From: a virus
Lineage: Duplodnaviria; Heunggongvirae; Uroviricota; Caudoviricetes
Length of the DNA stretch: 14,246 bases
IMG/VR virus record: IMGVR_UViG_2690316231_000009
Span: 1 to 14,246 of that record
Direction: 5' to 3' (one strand)
The translations under genes were made by a program, and so were the position numbers. Position 1 is the first letter of the stretch; every line of letters begins with the position of its first letter. The notes below the pieces were generated by a model that worked only from the letters and a program-made list of their open reading frames with translations, had not been told where the DNA came from and did no database searches. Of the stretch, positions 521-12,422 are shown piece by piece.

Positions 521-616
521 AGAAATGAAAAAAGGCCACGCAGTTGCGCAGCCTGATAAACCCTGGTTAAAATCCACACGATAACAACACAACAATATCA
601 GTATCTCATGCTATTG

Positions 617-641
617 CCCGAACCCATTCGGGCATTTTTTA
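617..641 (+). terminator. Candidate rho-independent terminator, plus strand
   Basis: GCCCGAA (617-623) / TTCGGGC (628-634) 7-bp stem, 4-nt loop, followed by ATTTTTT (635-641). No plus-strand ORF lies upstream, so the terminated transcript is unknown. Confidence 0.45.
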
Positions 642-646
642 CCCAT

Positions 647-673
647 AAAAAATGCCCCTCCGGAGAGGGGCAT
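647..673 (-). terminator. Candidate rho-independent terminator, minus strand, downstream of the TerB-like gene and small hydrophobic ORF
   Basis: ATGCCCCTC (652-660) / GAGGGGCAT (665-673) 9-bp stem with CGGA loop; A6 at 647-652 gives a U6 tract immediately 3' of the hairpin on the minus-strand transcript. Confidence 0.55.
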
Positions 674-838
674 GTTTGCATGCACATTCTTTTTCTTGCA
701 TGGTGCCGGGTGCCTCCCGGTGAATTCAGTATCAGCACCTGAATCCGCGATTATCCCATATACCTGGTTGCTGATCGCCCCTCCGCACAGGGGGATTCAC
801 CATGCAGAAGTGTTTTTAATAAACAGCAAATAAAAAAA

Positions 839-1600: not shown

Positions 1601-1607
1601 AGTGTAG

Positions 1608-1681
1608 CGCGTTGTACTGGAGTCGAACCAGTGACCGATTGCTTAGAAGGCAATTGCTCTGTCCTGCTGAGCTAACAACGC
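1608..1681 (-). tRNA. tRNA-Arg (anticodon UCU); the 3' CCA is not encoded (genome gives CUA)
   Basis: Manual cloverleaf fold of RC(1608-1681): acceptor GCGTTGT/ACAACGC (7 perfect pairs), D-stem GCTC/GAGC, anticodon stem ATTGC/GCAAT with loop CTTCTAA (anticodon TCT), T-arm ACTGG-TTCGACT-CCAGT, discriminator G. Positions 1605-1607 read TAG, so the 3' tail would be CUA rather than CCA. Confidence 0.8.
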
Positions 1682-1694
1682 AGAATACCGATAA

Positions 1695-1771
1695 TGGACC
1701 ACCACCGGGGACTCGAACCTCGCGCAACCAGCTTCGAAGGCTGACGCTCTATCCCGATGAGCTAATGGCGG
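1695..1771 (-). tRNA. tRNA-Arg (anticodon UCG), with a slightly imperfect cloverleaf
   Basis: RC(1695-1771) = CCGCCATTAGCTCATCGGGATAGAGCGTCAGCCTTCGAAGCTGGTTGCGCGAGGTTCGAGTCCCCGGTGGTGGTCCA. D-stem GCTC/GAGC, anticodon loop CTTCGAA (anticodon TCG), T-loop TTCGAGT, encoded CCA. Acceptor stem has two G-U pairs, T-stem has one A-C mismatch and position 1 is C. Confidence 0.7.
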
Positions 1772-1778
1772 TATGTGA

Positions 1779-1854
1779 TGGTGGCCCTTGCTGGATTTGA
1801 ACCAGCGACCTGGCGATTATGAGTCGCTCGCTCTCACCACTGAGCTAAAGGGCC
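1779..1854 (-). tRNA. tRNA with CAU anticodon, most like tRNA-Ile2 (ileX/ileZ type); part of a phage ileZ-argN-argO-like cluster
   Basis: RC(1779-1854) = GGCCCTTTAGCTCAGTGGTGAGAGCGAGCGACTCATAATCGCCAGGTCGCTGGTTCAAATCCAGCAAGGGCCACCA. Perfect acceptor stem, anticodon loop CTCATAA, T-arm GCTGG-TTCAAAT-CCAGC, encoded CCA. Closely resembles E. coli tRNA-Ile2 as I recall it. Spacers to the neighbouring tRNAs are 7 and 13 nt. Confidence 0.85.
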
Positions 1855-3200: not shown

Positions 3201-3647
3201 ATGAATAAAATGACTGTACTATTACTTAGCGCAACTATCATTTCAGGTTGTACTTCTTCCGTACCATTGATAAAGAAAACTCAATCAGGAAAACCTGAGG
3301 GGGTTTATCAAAATACGACAAAAGATAAAGTCAAAGATGCCCTTGTGAATTACTGCAATAGTAGAGGGTTGATAATTTACAACGCGGATAACAGCAGTGT
3401 TATATGTGGTAAAGAACTGGAAGGCGGCTCTGCTGTTTTTGGACAAATGTTAATCGGCAATGCCTATTCAACAACCCCGGTATCAAAAGTCAGATTTACT
3501 ATCGCTCAAGTTAATAACGATACAAAAGTGTGGGCCGATATGTGGATGGAAACTCAAATGGCAATGGGGCAAGTACAACAAATGTCTATAACAGACAACG
3601 CAAGCAAAAACACTATCCAACAACGTCTTGATGAATTAAAACCTTAA
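3201..3647 (+). CDS. Lipoprotein of unknown function (148 aa), AT-rich moron convergent with Q
   Basis: N-terminus MNKMTVLLLSATIISGCTSS has a positively charged n-region, hydrophobic core and lipobox ISGC. Markedly lower GC than surrounding phage genes. Opposite strand to the lytic operon. Confidence 0.7.
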   Translation: MNKMTVLLLSATIISGCTSSVPLIKKTQSGKPEGVYQNTTKDKVKDALVNYCNSRGLIIYNADNSSVICGKELEGGSAVFGQMLIGNAYSTTPVSKVRFTIAQVNNDTKVWADMWMETQMAMGQVQQMSITDNASKNTIQQRLDELKP

Positions 3648-3686: not shown

Positions 3687-3727
3687 CACATTAAACTGAT
3701 TCAATTACCCCCTCAATAAGAGGTCTT

Positions 3728-4093
3728 CTAACGATCCATCTCTAGCTCAATTTCTAACATCATTAACATGCCATCAACTACACCTTCAGCTTTTTGCAAT
3801 AAACGCCCAACCCAGCAATCAGAACGCCCATGTTTACGGGCAAGCGCCATAAAAGTCATACCACCTACATAATAATCCACTAATAAATCGTGCAAATCGC
3901 TGTTGTTCTTTTTCAGGCGAGCCATGCATCCACAAATGATCATCGCGTCATCGTCACAACATTGCGGGCGGGATTTTACTTTTGAAGGGATTAGTCCTTT
4001 AAATCCTGCAGCAATAGACGACCAGGTGACATCCTCGTGATTATTTGCCACCCATGCCCCCCAACGTTCAAGAACCATTTGAATATCACGCAT
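3728..4093 (-). CDS. quuD: Late-gene antiterminator Q, QuuD-like
   Basis: Starting at ATG 4093-4091 (GGAG SD 7 nt upstream) the protein reads [75 protein letters not shown]..., which I recognise as very close to the DLP12 prophage antiterminator QuuD (YbcQ). The track start at 4108 is a TTG extension. Confidence 0.8.
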
Positions 4094-4110
4094 CAACTTT
4101 CTCCACAAAA

Positions 4111-5106
4111 TCAGGCCAGCACGCCAATTGCCAGCGCACGATCGATAAAACGAAATATCAGCTCCAGCTGGGAGCCATACTTCTCTTCAAATGCCACGGT
4201 ATCCGCATGCAGCTCGTCGTGATGCTTTCTGCACAAAGGCAACACAAAAAGGTCATGCGCTTTTGTTCCCATTCCACCCTGACCGTGACCTATCAGGTGG
4301 TGGGGATCATCAGCGGGCTTTCCACAACATGCACACGGCTGTGTCTTAACCCAGCGCGTGTACTTTTCATTAACCCAGCGGCGACGTTTTGGGCGTAACA
4401 TAAAAGACTCCGGCGACTCCGGATCCACTTTCAGCGCCAGCACCTTTTTCGCCTTATCCTGGATGATGCTGGTGGCAGGAACCGAAGGCACAAGGTCACT
4501 TTCCCGGGTAACAGACGGCACAACAGGCTTCGGTAATCTCAGTGCCTTACGGGCTGCACTTTCCGGTAAGGCATCCGCCAGATCATTACGAATCAGCCAC
4601 CAGCACAGTTCCGGCATTGTCACAACGTGACTGTCATCAAAACCGAGATCCCGACGCACAACAGACAACACCCAGCGGGCACAGTTATCCGTTGCCATTG
4701 ATTCCAGCCGTTCCGTGAACTGATCGCGCAGCTGGTTATCGCAGTGCCAGCACAGACGGATTGCACCCGGAGCGTGTCGCATTGTGGTCATGTTCTCGCT
4801 GTGCCAGTCGGAATGAGGCCACTGGCAGCCTTTTTCACGAAGTAACCAGCTTTCAAGACATTCCACGCCACCAGCACGACGGATCACTGCCTCATTGCGG
4901 AACACGGCCCGAACGGCAGGATCATCCGCCAGCGGTTGTGATGCCGCCGGAACGGCACCACTGGCGAAAGATGAATAACGCTCCGGCTCAGGCTCCAGCA
5001 GGACACGCCCCTGCATAAACAGGGGCATCAGCTCTGAACCTGGCCTGAACAATACGATCCCCATACGCGGGGCAATTTCAGGGGTCAGTAGTGCTCTCAC
5101 GGTCAC
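4111..5106 (-). CDS. DUF968-family protein (HNH-like Cys/His motif), lambdoid nin-region type
   Basis: 331-aa ORF; C-terminal [45 protein letters not shown] matches the DUF968 signature. GTG start at 5106 lies 1 nt after the KilA-N stop (coupled); exact start uncertain. Confidence 0.75.
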
Positions 5107-8362: not shown

Positions 8363-8583
8363 GCCACACCTCCCAGACGCTTAAACATTTTTCCGGAGCA
8401 AAAGGCTATAAGCGGCATACTGACGCGGTAATTACGGCCCAGCGGTTCACAAACCACCTTCTGACATTCACGGTCAACCAGGCTAACACGTAGAACATGC
8501 CCAGCAGGCGTGGTGTACCACTGACCCGGACGAGGACAACGGAAAGTATGATTGGTAAACCGTTTGAAAATATTCCGGATCAT
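8359..8583 (-). CDS. Hypothetical protein (74 aa)
   Basis: ATG 8583-8581 overlaps the TGA stop of the Rha ORF (ATGA). No recognisable motif. Confidence 0.4.
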   Translation of the reverse strand: MIRNIFKRFTNHTFRCPRPGQWYTTPAGHVLRVSLVDRECQKVVCEPLGRNYRVSMPLIAFCSGKMFKRLGGVA

Positions 8584-9740
8584 TTGCGCCCCCTTACCTC
8601 TGAAGGGTTCAGCGACAAATTTATGAGACTGGCCAGCGCCGAAGCATCATTAATATAGTCATATAAGCTAACAGCCAGCGGAGATTCGGCTTTTGCCAAC
8701 ATAGGATAAAGCTGCTGCAGCCAGACCTGATGAATTGATGAAATGTAGGAACAGAGAACGCTGGCGTTATGTGCAACGTCGCTCGGTACAGCGGGCTTTG
8801 AAAGCTGTTTCTCCATCTGGTTAAAGGCATTTATGTATGCCTCTTTGAACCGGGCAGCACGTTTACCCGTGAAACCCATAGCAAGAAACGCAAAACCGTC
8901 TCGTGTGATTTGATAGCAAGGGAGCTTGCGTGTACCACCGTTCGGTTGATTTACCGAAATCGATGTCTCCGCAAAATTGCGGGCACAAAACTCTGGGGAA
9001 CAATCCAGAGTGCGGATCTTTTTCAGCACATCGTCGTGACGCTTGGAGAAGAAGTTGGCAACAGCCAAAGAAGTGGTAACGGCCTGGCCGTTGTCAATGG
9101 TGATTTCAGGTTGAGTGAGGGCTGGGATCGTAGCCATGATGGCAGCCTCCGTTGACAGTGAAAAACTTCCACCACCGGAAACGCCAATTTCACTGGTGGT
9201 GAACTGGACGGGGTTGGCGTAACCGGCGTCAACGGAGACCGGCGCACCTTTCGGTGCCCCCGCCCAGCCCACCATAATCTGGATGTGAGCAAATGCGGAC
9301 GATAAAAAAGACGCTGGCGCGTCATACATCGCCGTTGACAATTTCAGGACGCCAATCCCGGCACCCGCTTTATAAGGTGCCTGAGCAGTGTAACGTCCCG
9401 GAATTGCAGAATCAATATGCTGGTGGTCCTTCACACTCAACAAAATCACGCCTGAATTTCCACAAAGGACTAAAGCACTCATGCGGGTAGTCTTTGCGAA
9501 GATAGATAACGCGCTGTGTTTCTGGCTCCCAACGAATAACATGGACATAAAGCCCTCTTCCGTCACGAAACCAGCGGTTAAGTTCCTGCACAACTCGCCC
9601 CCCACAGTCAGGTAAAGTTCTCTGTGGTTACTTACAGCCAGGTGATTTGGTAATCTGCATTCATGCCGTAACAACAGGTGTTCAGCGACGCTGACCACCA
9701 GCTGTTGCGACAAACGGTTATTTGCCGTTAAACTATTCAT
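8580..9740 (-). CDS. Rha-family phage regulatory protein with an about 200-aa N-terminal extension of unknown function; strong internal start at 9137
   Basis: 386-aa uninterrupted ORF. Residues about 220-310 (LAVANFFSKRHDDVLKKIRTLDCSPEFCARNFAETSISVNQPNGGTRKLPCYQITRDGFAFLAMGFTGKRAARFKEAYINAFNQME) form a Phage_pRha domain. ATG 9740 overlaps the CII-like stop (ATGA). An internal ATG at 9137 with GGAGG 8 nt upstream would give a 185-aa stand-alone Rha protein (MATIPALTQPEITIDNGQAV...). Confidence 0.6.
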   Translation of the reverse strand: MNSLTANNRLSQQLVVSVAEHLLLRHECRLPNHLAVSNHRELYLTVGGELCRNLTAGFVTEEGFMSMLFVGSQKHSALSIFAKTTRMSALVLCGNSGVILLSVKDHQHIDSAIPGRYTAQAPYKAGAGIGVLKLSTAMYDAPASFLSSAFAHIQIMVGWAGAPKGAPVSVDAGYANPVQFTTSEIGVSGGGSFSLSTEAAIMATIPALTQPEITIDNGQAVTTSLAVANFFSKRHDDVLKKIRTLDCSPEFCARNFAETSISVNQPNGGTRKLPCYQITRDGFAFLAMGFTGKRAARFKEAYINAFNQMEKQLSKPAVPSDVAHNASVLCSYISSIHQVWLQQLYPMLAKAESPLAVSLYDYINDASALASLINLSLNPSEVRGRK

Positions 9741-10547: not shown

Positions 10548-10644
10548 ATGACCTCCACATATTGCGTGATGAGCATATTATTTCACGCAAATATTTTGCG
10601 CAAGTTGATTTGCTTAACGCGCAATAAAGAAATGTAATAAACGC
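10548..10644. promoter_or_regulatory. Immunity-region divergent promoter/operator spacer (OR-like) with repeated TTGCG...CGCAA palindromic elements
   Basis: TTGCGTGA (10562-10569) / TCACGCAA (10583-10590) and TTGCGC (10596-10601) / GCGCAA (10619-10624) form two 29-bp inverted repeats of identical geometry. TTGCGCAA (10596-10603) is an 8-bp palindrome. TTGCTTAACGCGCAA (10610-10624) resembles the 15-mers found downstream of cI. Confidence 0.6.
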
Positions 10645-11337
10645 ATGAACATAGGAAACCGAGTCAGACAACTTCGCCAGGCGAAGAACATGAAAATCGC
10701 CGATCTCGCTGAAGCAATAGGAGTGGATGCGGCGAATATCTCACGCCTGGAAACAGGTAAGCAGAAACAATTCACTGAACAAGCCCTGAGTAATATTGCC
10801 AGGAGCTTAGGTGTTGATATTGCTGATCTCTTTACCTCAGACGTCAAAAGTAATACTGTATGTAAAAACAGTATTAGTGAGGATGTTGCGCAGGTGAAGG
10901 ATGTATTCCGTATTGAAATGCTGGATGTCAGTGCCAGTGCGGGAAATGGCCTTATCCAGGGCGGTGATGTCATTGATGTGATTCATGCCATTGAATACAG
11001 AACTGATAATGCTGTATCGATGTTTGGCGGACGGCCAGCCAATCACATTAAAGTTATCAACGTTCGTGGGGACAGTATGTGTCCAACCATTGAGCCAGGA
11101 GATCTCATCTTCGTTGATGTCAGTATCAATCAGTTTGATGGAGATGGTATCTATGTATTTGGTTTTGATGATAAAATTTATGTCAAACGACTGCAAATGA
11201 TACCTGACAAACTACTGGTGATTTCTGATAACCAGATTTACCGTGAATGGGGAATTACCAGCGAAAATGAACACCGGTTTATGGTCTTTGGAAAGGTCTT
11301 AATCAGCCAGTCACAAACCCTTAAGCGACACAATTAA
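10645..11337 (+). CDS. CI-type prophage repressor (HTH_XRE N-domain plus S24 LexA-like autopeptidase C-domain)
   Basis: 230 aa; N-terminal HTH (VRQLRQAKNMKIADLAEAIGVDAANISRLETGK); Ala-Gly cleavage site (SASAGNG); catalytic Ser in GDSMCPTI and Lys in YVKRL. No SD precedes the ATG at 10645. Confidence 0.9.
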   Translation: MNIGNRVRQLRQAKNMKIADLAEAIGVDAANISRLETGKQKQFTEQALSNIARSLGVDIADLFTSDVKSNTVCKNSISEDVAQVKDVFRIEMLDVSASAGNGLIQGGDVIDVIHAIEYRTDNAVSMFGGRPANHIKVINVRGDSMCPTIEPGDLIFVDVSINQFDGDGIYVFGFDDKIYVKRLQMIPDKLLVISDNQIYREWGITSENEHRFMVFGKVLISQSQTLKRHN

Positions 11338-11357
11338 CCCTTACCTCCTCATCAATT

Positions 11358-11382
11358 AGCCACCCAAAGGTGGCTTTTCATT
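11358..11382 (+). terminator. Rho-independent terminator downstream of the repressor gene
   Basis: AGCCACC (11358-11364) / GGTGGCT (11369-11375) stem with CAAA loop, followed by TTTTCATT. Confidence 0.6.
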
Positions 11383-11392
11383 ACCCTTTAAA

Positions 11393-11446
11393 TTGCATAT
11401 CTCGCAATAAAAACACTTGCATAATGCGCAACTTCATTTTATCTTT
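11393..11446 (+). promoter_or_regulatory. Candidate OL/pL region: two 15-bp operator-like elements overlapping a promoter-like sequence
   Basis: TTGCATATCTCGCAA (11393-11407) and TTGCATAATGCGCAA (11417-11431) share the TTGC-N7-GCAA layout seen in the cI-cro spacer. TTGCAT (11418-11423) followed 17 nt later by TATCTT (11441-11446) is promoter-like. Confidence 0.35.
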
Positions 11447-11876
11447 CTTTCCAGACAAACAAACAAGGTACTAACAAAATTTGGTTGTAACACGACGTAT
11501 GGCACATGCGTCGTTAGCGGTCTGGGGACGTTAAAGGGGACAATCCACTCCTTGCTCGAGCAAACAAACCAGGTAGCCGGAATGTGCAAGTCAATGATGA
11601 TGCTGATAAGACGCCTAACCAGCGTGGCGGTTCGGTTTGACACCTGGGAAGAGACCAGGGTGCAACGATGAGGGCATTTATGGAACCGCGACAAAGTGTG
11701 GTGCCGTAACTGGCTAAGTGCTCTCAGCGTTGTGGTGAATGCGCAGGCTGATGCGCGAAAGACATTGCAGCTATTGCGGAAAAGAGCTGTTCGGCGGGGC
11801 AATTAAACGCCCGTGAGAGTCTGAAATAACCGCAAGCCGGAGATCAGCACCGGTCACCACAACAGCCACTGCTTTG

Positions 11877-11923
11877 GCGGTACCAGTTTGTACACTTGCT
11901 TCCGGCTGGTACCGCTCTTTTTA
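11877..11923 (+). terminator. Candidate intrinsic terminator/attenuator in the early-left leader; its T-tract resembles a boxA element
   Basis: GCGGTACCAG (11877-11886) / CTGGTACCGC (11906-11915) 10-bp stem with 19-nt loop, followed by TCTTTTTACAAAA. CGCTCTTTTTA (11913-11923) resembles boxA (lambda CGCTCTTA; rrn GCTCTTTAACAA). Confidence 0.35.
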
Positions 11924-12059
11924 CAAAACAGAGAAGAGCATCACCGGCCGACGGGCTCATAACCCAATCCATCCGGGCGGCTGCCACCGCAGGTGTTCTT
12001 CTCTGTTTTGTGGAGAAACCAACCGACCTTGCAGGGTCGATATGATGAGGAGCAGCAAA

Positions 12060-12422
12060 ATGGCTAGCGAACGCAGTACTGATGTGCAGGCATTTATCGG
12101 GGAGCTGGACGGCGGCGTATTTGAAACCAAAATCGGCGCTGTTCTCAGTGAAGTCGCTTCCGGTGTGATGAATACGAAAACCAAAGGTAAGGTCTCGCTC
12201 AACCTGGAAATCGAACCATTTGATGAGAACCGTGTGAAAATCAAACACAAACTCTCATATGTTCGCCCGACTAACCGCGGGAAAATTTCCGAAGAAGACA
12301 CCACCGAAACGCCGATGTATGTCAATCGCGGTGGTCGCCTGACTATTCTGCAGGAAGACCAGGGACAATTACTGACTCTTGCCGGTGAACCTGACGGAAA
12401 ACTCCGCGCAGCAGGTCATTAA
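12060..12422 (+). CDS. Hypothetical early-left protein, YfdP-like (120 aa)
   Basis: ATG 12060 with GAGGAG 7 nt upstream (MASERSTDVQAFIGELDGGVFETKIGAVL...). The track ORF 11874..12422 adds an implausible upstream extension. Resemblance to CPS-53 YfdP is from memory. Confidence 0.5.
   Translation: MASERSTDVQAFIGELDGGVFETKIGAVLSEVASGVMNTKTKGKVSLNLEIEPFDENRVKIKHKLSYVRPTNRGKISEEDTTETPMYVNRGGRLTILQEDQGQLLTLAGEPDGKLRAAGH

Follow-up and report, generated by a model that had tools for sequence, protein, structure and literature searches.

A candidate modular non-coding-RNA cassette between the cI-like repressor gene and yfdP of an Escherichia coli lambdoid prophage

We analyzed a 14,246-nucleotide (nt) stretch of DNA (IMG/VR record IMGVR_UViG_2690316231_000009, hereafter the window), which is part of an SfV/mEp460/cdtI-like lambdoid prophage of Escherichia coli. 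The subject is the gap between the cI-like repressor gene and yfdP. The plus strand of this gap carries conserved RNA structures, which are modular and linked to known RNA families. We consider it probable that positions 11383-12059 are mainly an RNA-gene cassette on the plus strand and not an idle leader. The likely order is an early-left promoter, a cassette of modular non-coding RNAs and, last, the 5' leader of yfdP, which is also structured. The original prediction, made from the sequence alone, had described an early-left leader without open reading frames (ORFs) or an N-like gene, and had suggested a terminator or attenuator that something other than N overcomes. It had correctly located the gap downstream of the cI terminator and ahead of the first early-left gene, which is yfdP.

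The plus strand of the gap folds well beyond shuffled sequences (z = -4.8). No Rfam 15 family matched the gap, either at the gathering threshold or at E ≤ 10. In 20 related loci, Rfam returned tRNAs only; GOLLD and ROOL RNAs were found neither there nor in the window.

Modules of the cassette

The first module, domain A, was defined by alignment, covariation and a covariance model. Its features in the window are as follows.

11486-11665, plus strand: domain A, a conserved structured RNA of about 180 nt
11493-11500/11506-11513, plus strand: helix H1, loop GGCAC
11521-11524/11579-11582, plus strand: helix H2, enclosing a variable arm with the palindrome at 11552-11563
11612-11615/11623-11626, plus strand: helix H4, loop CUAACCA
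11643-11647/11655-11659, plus strand: helix H5, loop GAAGAGA
GCAC (H1 loop) with GUGC at 11594-11597: a possible 4-bp pseudoknot, invariant

The structure (H1, H2 with its variable arm, H3, H4, H5 and the possible pseudoknot) was derived by hand from 33 representatives that were less than 90% identical. Among these copies, 97% of the cells were paired, compared with 25-45% when the partners were slid. Compensatory changes were found at 11 pairs distributed over five helices, and none of 500 shuffles scored as high. RNAalifold favored a long-range pairing of the H1 loop region with AUGUGC, but the local H1 hairpin was kept because it covaries. The loops and junctions GGCAC, UAGCGGUC, GGUAGCCGGAAUGUGCAAG, YUCACCA, GGCGRUWCGGUGUGAC and GAAGAGA are near-invariant.

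A scan of IMG/VR with the core GGTAGCCGGAATGTGCAAG found at least 120 loci and at least 107 distinct copies of domain A. The covariance model (R1) scored the window copy at 145.8 bits (E = 1e-47) and found no second copy in the 14.2-kb window, including the pR operon and the vicinity of STnc100. One copy was present in the stretch of phage P1 that was searched (L010; 136.8 bits). The exact core was present at 24 loci in species-representative genomes, of which 22 were Enterobacterales. The core was also seen in two metagenome bins labelled Oscillospiraceae and Bacillota (L236 and L248), which were probably contaminated during binning by an enterobacterial phage contig.

Two elements named in the original prediction belong to this domain. 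The ACGACG/CGTCGT hairpin is real, although it lies at 11492-11497/11509-11514, about 2 nt from where it had been placed; its full stem is 8-9 bp and its loop is GGCAC. The perfect palindrome TTGCTCGAGCAA is exactly at 11552-11563. Their reading as parts of an ad hoc attenuator did not hold: the hairpin is H1 of the conserved 180-nt domain, whose H2 encloses the palindrome in its variable arm.

The original prediction had also raised an RNA-based mechanism like the HK022 put sites. Domain A would then be a cis-acting antiterminator on the nascent pL RNA, which binds RNA polymerase and reads through the terminator at 11876-11923 and later ones. We consider this unlikely, and equally so that such an element stands in for N and nutL in this N-less phage. 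The layout fits the proposal. Domain A is close to the promoter here, and at loci L137 and L161 a few nt separate it from a pL-type promoter. The order of domain A, terminator and genes recurs in one orientation, for example in phiV10, and no N-like ORF is present. HK022 put acts alone from exactly the position of domain A (PMC9378689). In addition, domain A has invariant single-stranded junctions and loops in unrelated phages of one host family, which suggests that it binds a conserved host machine. However, the covariance model found nothing at HK022 putL or putR, nor in the lambda N leader or the SfV leader. Each early operon of HK022 contains a two-stem put site of about 70 nt, whereas domain A has about 180 nt and at least five helices, and the window holds one copy with none in the pR operon. 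Domain A also occurs mid-operon after tRNA-Ile in the P1 ban operon, and next to tRNAs in virulent phages. Finally, SfV lacks domain A but shares the terminator and the yfdP leader.

Domain A is followed by a linker helix, domain B, a terminator and the leader of yfdP.

11663-11678 (CAACGATGAGGGCATT) with 11717-11732 (AGTGCTCTCAGCGTTG), plus strand: 16-bp linker helix, with a variable cap hairpin at 11679-11716
11730-11862, plus strand: domain B, a tRNA-shaped scaffold (the payload)
11730-11737 (TTGTGGTG)/11855-11862 (CACCACAA), then AA, plus strand: closing stem of domain B
11741-11745/11752-11756, plus strand: hairpin P2 with loop GGCTGA (GCGCA-GGCTGA-TGCGC)
11757-11835, plus strand: hypervariable insert
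11836-11840/11850-11854, plus strand: hairpin P3 (GCCGG-AGATCAGCA-CCGGC), abutting the 3' strand of the closing stem
11876-11923, plus strand: predicted intrinsic terminator of the cassette, with a 13-bp stem (11876-11888/11904-11916) and then CUUUUUAC
11918-12016, plus strand: long hairpin of the yfdP leader, with a 25-bp stem (11918-11942/11992-12016) whose 5' strand includes the terminator U-run
12024-12039, 12049-12054 and 12061, plus strand: small hairpin, Shine-Dalgarno (SD) sequence GAGGAG and the yfdP ATG

Many copies of domain A are followed by the same series: the 5' strand of the linker, a variable hairpin, the 3' strand of the linker, the payload, a trailer hairpin and a terminator. 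The linker strands are CAACGAUGAGAGCAUU (5') and AGUGCUCUCAGCGUUG (3'), each with variants, and the terminator has the form GGCGG...CCGCC-CUUUUUACA. The linker helix terminates on the first base of the payload. It has 14-16 bp in all 22 distinct homologous pairs, which fall into six co-varying sequence types, and cognate strands pair at a mean of -19.7 kcal/mol compared with -15.7 kcal/mol for non-cognate strands.

The payload differs among the cassettes. Domain B is the payload in the window and in many others, and other B-like variants occur elsewhere. In epsilon15-like phages the payload is tRNA-Arg(UCU), whose 5' end is at the exact start position of domain B. At L215, the Rfam STnc100 model matched the payload and terminator right after domain A (45.8 bits, E = 1e-8; gathering threshold 47). 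In SfV, where domain A is absent, the payload is STnc100-like and immediately precedes the same terminator hairpin, which is followed by the 25-bp hairpin seen in the window and a yfdP homologue. Conversely, domain A occurs without domain B before ban in P1, and domain B without domain A in the SfV-type arrangement and in N leaders.

Some smaller pieces recur in other places. The motif GGGCNCATAACCCAATCCA, at 11953-11972 inside the yfdP-leader hairpin of the window, is the variable linker hairpin at L033 and L061, which suggests that small sub-modules are reused. At L103 (about 3700-3780), a tRNA-like sequence lies inside the hairpin that caps the linker helix. The insert of domain B at L128 also contains a tRNA-like sequence, and both carry GGTTCGATTCC T-arm motifs.

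The architecture of domain B was reproduced by the minimum-energy fold of 11728-11866. An IMG/VR scan with its conserved 5' core found at least 120 loci; overall there were at least 134 copies with one common scaffold. The insert is different: at least 56 distinct inserts of 12-162 nt were wholly different between copies. P3 was paired in 86.7% of the cells and had six compensatory cells (0 of 500 shuffles as high), which is a modest covariation; its variants include GTCGG/CCGAC, GTTGG/CCAAC, GCAGG/CCTGC and GCTGG/CCAGC. P2 varies as GCACA/TGTGC and GGCGG/CCGCC. The P2 loop GCUGAU and the P3 loop AUCAGC have a conserved six-base complementarity, in which the 5' loop is fixed by the search pattern. 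A hairpin with a U-run follows domain B in 30 of the 56 distinct copies. Among the matches listed, all 70 tRNA genes within 1.5 kb of domain B copies share its strand; therefore, the functional strand of domain B is the plus strand of the window.

A further similarity concerns the H4 loop of domain A. In most copies it is UUCACCA, which is exactly complementary to a UGGUGAA that B/STnc100-type payloads carry at their 5' end; it also shares sequence with CACCA in the payload 3' strand. The window loop CUAACCA (11612-11626) matches 11732-11739 only in part. A contact between domain A and the payload, or mimicry, is possible.

We also considered a cryptic tRNA at domain B. This was rejected: ARAGORN gave no credible tRNA there at default or relaxed thresholds (ps70 with introns gave only nonsense calls). 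The Rfam tRNA model did not recognize domain B even at E ≤ 10. A conserved CCA end is absent among the 56 distinct copies (N-CCA in 4 and CCA directly in 6), and the window reads CACCACA-ACAG.

Domain B could instead be a tRNA mimic or decoy in phage-host conflict, which is processed like a tRNA and whose variable modules titrate RNA-binding proteins or defence nucleases. The hypervariability of the insert would then reflect an arms race. Both proposals seem improbable to us. Domain B does replace tRNA-Arg in an otherwise identical cassette, and the first bases of the tRNA, GTGG, align with its GTGGTG. Its layout is tRNA-like, with a closing stem, a 2-nt spacer, a hairpin, a variable domain and a hairpin abutting the 3' strand, and the pairing of the P2 and P3 loops could mimic a tRNA elbow. 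The unrelated inserts include a 47-nt mimic of a small-subunit (SSU) rRNA helix and others that embed tRNA-like sequences. On the other hand, both tRNA searches missed domain B even when relaxed, the CCA end is not conserved, and the loop pairing is conserved without covariation. The SSU helix (AUCAGCUAGAUGGUGGGGUAAUGGCUCACCAUGGCGACGACGGG) was observed at L100 (1953-1999, minus strand), and the same insert is present at L103, L079 and L089; it matched the Rfam SSU clan with E = 1.5e-7.

The hairpin at 11876-11923 has a stability of -21.2 kcal/mol (z = -3.9). A simple terminator scan missed it because its loop is longer than 8 nt. Homologous hairpins of the form GGCGG-N6...N6-CCGCC with a U-run have at least six fully compensatory inner variants and stand downstream of domain B, tRNA-Arg and STnc100-type payloads. 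With its G+C-rich stem, U-run and compensatory conservation, the hairpin is a predicted Rho-independent terminator. The original prediction was thus right to place a terminator upstream of the early-left genes. The hairpin is not an ad hoc attenuator: it is the conserved, predicted 3' terminator of an RNA cassette, which also ends units with tRNA-Arg and with STnc100-type payloads. The boxA-like tract that it had noted does exist as a resemblance (CGCTCTTTTTACAA, 11913-11926). However, this is the U-tract of the terminator, which reads CGCCCTTTTTACA in most homologues, so that the resemblance is not a conserved one.

The long hairpin of the yfdP leader has a stability of -49.2 kcal/mol (z = -6.6, 0 of 200 shuffles) and may be an RNase III substrate. 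The small hairpin at 12024-12039 was no better than shuffles (z = -0.56). The block of terminator and yfdP leader (positions 538-723 of the gap query) accompanies yfdP in SfV, CPS-53-like prophages and many other E. coli prophages.

Coding potential and genomic setting

Older phage records list opposite-strand 'hypothetical proteins' between the repressor gene and yfdP. PGAP annotates nothing in the 723 bp from the repressor gene to yfdP (RefSeq genome L002, 99.9% identical). The mechanical ORFs encode 84 amino acids on the plus strand and 122 and 134 amino acids on the minus strand. Over 33 homologues, the substitution entropy by codon position was 0.63/0.68/0.68 bits, indicating no three-base periodicity. 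In addition, homologues differ in length by numbers of nt not divisible by three, and each of the six frames is interrupted by stops in the P1 copy. A protein gene on either strand, including mEp460_036/037 and P1 plp/upl, was therefore rejected, and the gap has no credible ORF, as originally described. The claimed lack of an N gene was also borne out: no Arg-rich, N-like ORF was found in the gap or adjoining it, and the first gene is yfdP.

Two annotated coding sequences of mEp460 (L001), mEp460_037 (4097-4465, minus strand) and mEp460_036 (4507-4650, minus strand), are antisense to domains A/B and to the terminator and leader, respectively. Lacking a coding signature, they are probably annotation artefacts. 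In P1 (AF234172), the domain B copy (L010, about 3306-3420; about 69805-69920 of the record) is on the strand of Pban, trnN and trnT and overlaps the annotated plp and upl coding sequences, which are on the opposite strand. These two ORFs may be spurious. The leader of the P1 ban operon has the order dicF-like region, two tRNAs (trnN and trnT), domain B, tciABC, the tRNA-Ile gene trnI, domain A directly after it, and ban.

Parts of the gap are present in 2662 of 5426 complete E. coli genomes, as determined by BLAST. They are also found in phages of Klebsiella, Salmonella, Shigella, Enterobacter, Erwinia, Cronobacter, Edwardsiella and Citrobacter, with pieces in unannotated gaps of P1, lambdoid, epsilon15-like, T1-like and Vi01-like phages. 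In the epsilon15-like phage phiV10, the piece abuts tRNA-Arg on the 5' side of the tRNA. Pieces also lie near tRNAs in the T1-like phage IME207, Vi01-like Klebsiella phages and an Erwinia phage, and downstream of a lexA-like repressor gene in an Edwardsiella phage. The gap itself is a mosaic, with abrupt homology boundaries at about 11473, 11729 and 11875 (about 136, 392 and 538 of the query). Although about half of the complete E. coli genomes carry parts of the gap, domain A and the scaffold of domain B are unannotated and absent from Rfam; the ORFs called over them in P1 and mEp460 are probably spurious.

This mosaicism could mean that the conserved blocks act as DNA, as a recombination 'linker' for mosaic exchange, or as a Rho-resisting leader without a dedicated RNA product. 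The sharp boundaries, together with the separate occurrence of domain A, domain B and the terminator/yfdP-leader block, are consistent with this. We nevertheless regard it as very unlikely. Compensatory changes in the five helices of domain A, the linker, P3 and the terminator are unexpected for recombination sites, and the orientation relative to tRNAs and operons is strict (70/70). Moreover, protection against Rho would not require loops and junctions to be as conserved in sequence as they are among such dissimilar phages.

Upstream of domain A, the gap contains the features expected of an early-left operator and promoter (oL/pL).

10645-11337, plus strand: cI-like repressor gene, S24-type
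11358-11375, plus strand: intrinsic terminator of the repressor gene found by the scan, with a 7-bp stem including five G-C pairs and then TTTTC
11393-11445, plus strand: oL/pL, with operator-like 15-mers and a predicted promoter
11393-11407 (TTGCATATCTCGCAA) and 11417-11431 (TTGCATAATGCGCAA): operator-like 15-mers that fit TTGC-N7-GCAA
11417-11422 and 11440-11445, plus strand: putative pL, with -35 TTGCAT, a 17-nt spacer and -10 TATCTT

The two operator-like 15-mers of the original prediction were thereby confirmed. A third copy of TTGC-N7-GCAA lies in the cI/cro intergenic region (10610-10624), and the window has four copies compared with 0.43 expected. At L137 and L161, TTGCGT/TTGCGC-N17-TATCTT is present a few nt upstream of domain A. 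The homology with other immunity types breaks at about 11473. A consensus promoter scan did not include the putative pL among its calls and made none from the cassette terminator to yfdP. After the repressor gene, yfdP (12061-12422), yfdQ and yfdR come next in the annotation, all on its strand.

Elsewhere in the window, Rfam found a C4 antisense RNA (9192-9279, minus strand, 81 bits) and isrK (9304-9380, minus strand, 62 bits) inside a 386-amino-acid ORF (8580-9740, minus strand). PGAP annotates this ORF as a Rha-family regulator in a near-identical genome. Either the start of the ORF is over-extended, or RNA genes and coding sequence overlap.

Proposed role of the cassette

Taken from sequence comparison, the probable role of the cassette is to produce processed, trans-acting phage small RNAs (sRNAs) of the STnc100 superfamily, with a terminator that also limits yfdPQR. 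Transcription would start from pL at about 11452 and proceed through domain A, the 16-bp linker helix, domain B with its hypervariable insert and the terminator. Most transcripts would stop at 11923 and be processed into one or two stable trans-acting RNAs. Candidate processing sites are the junction of linker and payload, which is the 5' end of the tRNA in sister cassettes, and the long helices. By analogy with STnc100 and PasD, the variable insert could be the specificity part, and the scaffold and terminator could confer stability and possibly Hfq binding. The terminator would also act as a brake on yfdP-yfdQ-yfdR, which would be reached only by partial read-through.

Several points weigh against this proposal. 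Domain A has no known relative, as judged by the lack of an Rfam match, and the Rfam STnc100 model misses domain B (searched over 11200-12300) even at E ≤ 10. Domains A and B occur separately and need not act together. The inserts are long and structured and not short single-stranded seeds, so that display or decoy fits as well as base-pairing. Finally, the expression of yfdPQR is left without explanation if the terminator is efficient.

A broader reading, which we hold only as a tentative possibility, is that enterobacterial phages of many unrelated kinds have in common an exchangeable 'RNA expression cassette' composed of domain A, a helix and a slot for a tRNA or for a tRNA-shaped scaffold with arbitrary modules such as rRNA or tRNA mimics. 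It is conceivable, to the same limited extent, that this is a natural counterpart of the engineered tRNA scaffold, which diversifies decoys or guides against host factors or defences. Equally speculative is the idea that domain A is a new RNA class whose partner is a conserved host machine, such as RNase P, RNA polymerase or the ribosome.

Returning to the sRNA cassette, it would account for the length and the ORF-free state of such 'leaders'. Domains A and B and the inserts provide a testable set of RNAs for work on phage-host RNA biology, on how N-less lambdoid phages control their early operons and on possible anti-defence decoys.

Comparison with known systems

Like domain A, HK022 put consists of RNA alone and follows pL directly, and both belong to lambdoid phages that lack N; the differences in size, helices and copy number are given above. 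HK022 put acts in cis on later terminators through the zinc-binding domain of the RNA polymerase beta' subunit. By eye, H1 resembles putL stem I (ACGGCG...CGUCG), but this candidate was rejected by the covariance model.

GOLLD and ROOL RNAs often adjoin tRNA genes, sometimes with tRNAs embedded. Like the cassette, they are large, ornate and covarying RNAs of phages and prophages. The cassette differs from them in having no Rfam match, in its Enterobacterales hosts, in its much smaller size and in its modular design with an exchangeable payload.

The position of the gap had been likened to that of N and nutL in lambda, and this analogy proved apt. The lambda N-leader hairpin, between nutL and N, has the pL-leader position that domain B has in the window. 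In N-bearing lambdoid phages, copies of domain B lie in the N leader within the same outer stem as in lambda (GCTTTGGGGTGTG...CACACCACCAAAGC), followed by the lambda SD region and then an N-family ORF. In the lambda record, the outer stem and SD region likewise flank the large nutL-N hairpin. This large hairpin is, we assume, the RNase III site of the lambda N leader; cleavage of the N-leader hairpin by RNase III has reportedly been described. Where the closing stem of domain B is extended (GCTTTGGGGTGTGGTG...CACCACACCACCAAAGC), an SD sequence and small Arg-rich ORFs follow. One of these loci (L040) encodes MNAQERRRESRSAKQAEWKAANPLLVG, with 19 matches to the first 27 residues of lambda N. L027 matches the C-terminus of lambda N (E = 5e-7) and L068 its N-terminus. 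In contrast, the interior of the lambda hairpin has no domain B core, and in the window the outer helix is different (the linker) and there is no N gene. No nutL boxB turned up in the window, where no systematic boxB search was made. The lambda-type boxA is CGCTCTTA-like, and the window tract resembles it while being the terminator U-tract.

Phage tRNA genes, such as tRNA-Arg of phiV10 and other epsilon15-like phages and trnI/trnT of P1, share with domain B the slot, the leader, the trailer and the strand. Domain B differs from a tRNA in having neither canonical D and T loops nor an anticodon arm, and its CCA is not conserved.

The closest counterparts of domain B are STnc100 (RF02076) and PasD. 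Like domain B, they have an 8-bp closing stem ending in UGGUG, an AAU spacer and a 5-bp hairpin with a 6-nt loop. The middle is variable. Next comes a 5-bp CCGG-type hairpin directly adjoining the 3' strand CACCA..., and after a spacer there is an intrinsic terminator. Domain B and STnc100 share the UGGUGAAU and CCGG...CACCA motifs. They differ in the sequences of P2 and P3 and in the hypervariable insert. Domain B lies in the early-left leader, whereas the bona fide STnc100 of the window is elsewhere in the prophage, downstream of a tRNA cluster. Because the Rfam model misses domain B, the family link rests on shared topology, motifs and intermediates (L215 and SfV). On these grounds, domain B appears to be a structural sibling of STnc100 that falls below Rfam detection.

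The bona fide STnc100 (641-831, minus strand) scored 143 bits with Rfam. It clusters with the anti-GcvB sponge AgvB (579-640, plus strand) and three tRNAs (Met-CAT, Arg-TCG and Arg-TCT; 1607-1854, minus strand). It is on the strand of the tRNAs and downstream of them, with no domain A upstream. STnc100 and PasD have been described as sRNAs of prophages that differ in seed region and in target set (bioRxiv 10.64898/2026.05.13.724894), and the function of STnc100 is still hypothetical (PMC12370729).

Searches for the conserved strings, in DNA and RNA spelling, and for phage tRNA-like or structured RNAs returned no matching literature, within an incomplete coverage. With the same limit, no earlier description of domain A, the linker or the cassette logic was found in Rfam 15 or in the literature searched. 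Domain B, judged by its predicted fold and motifs, would be a new variant within the STnc100/PasD kind. The cassette view unites STnc100/PasD-type sRNAs, phage tRNA genes and the lambda N-leader hairpin as variants of one modular design.

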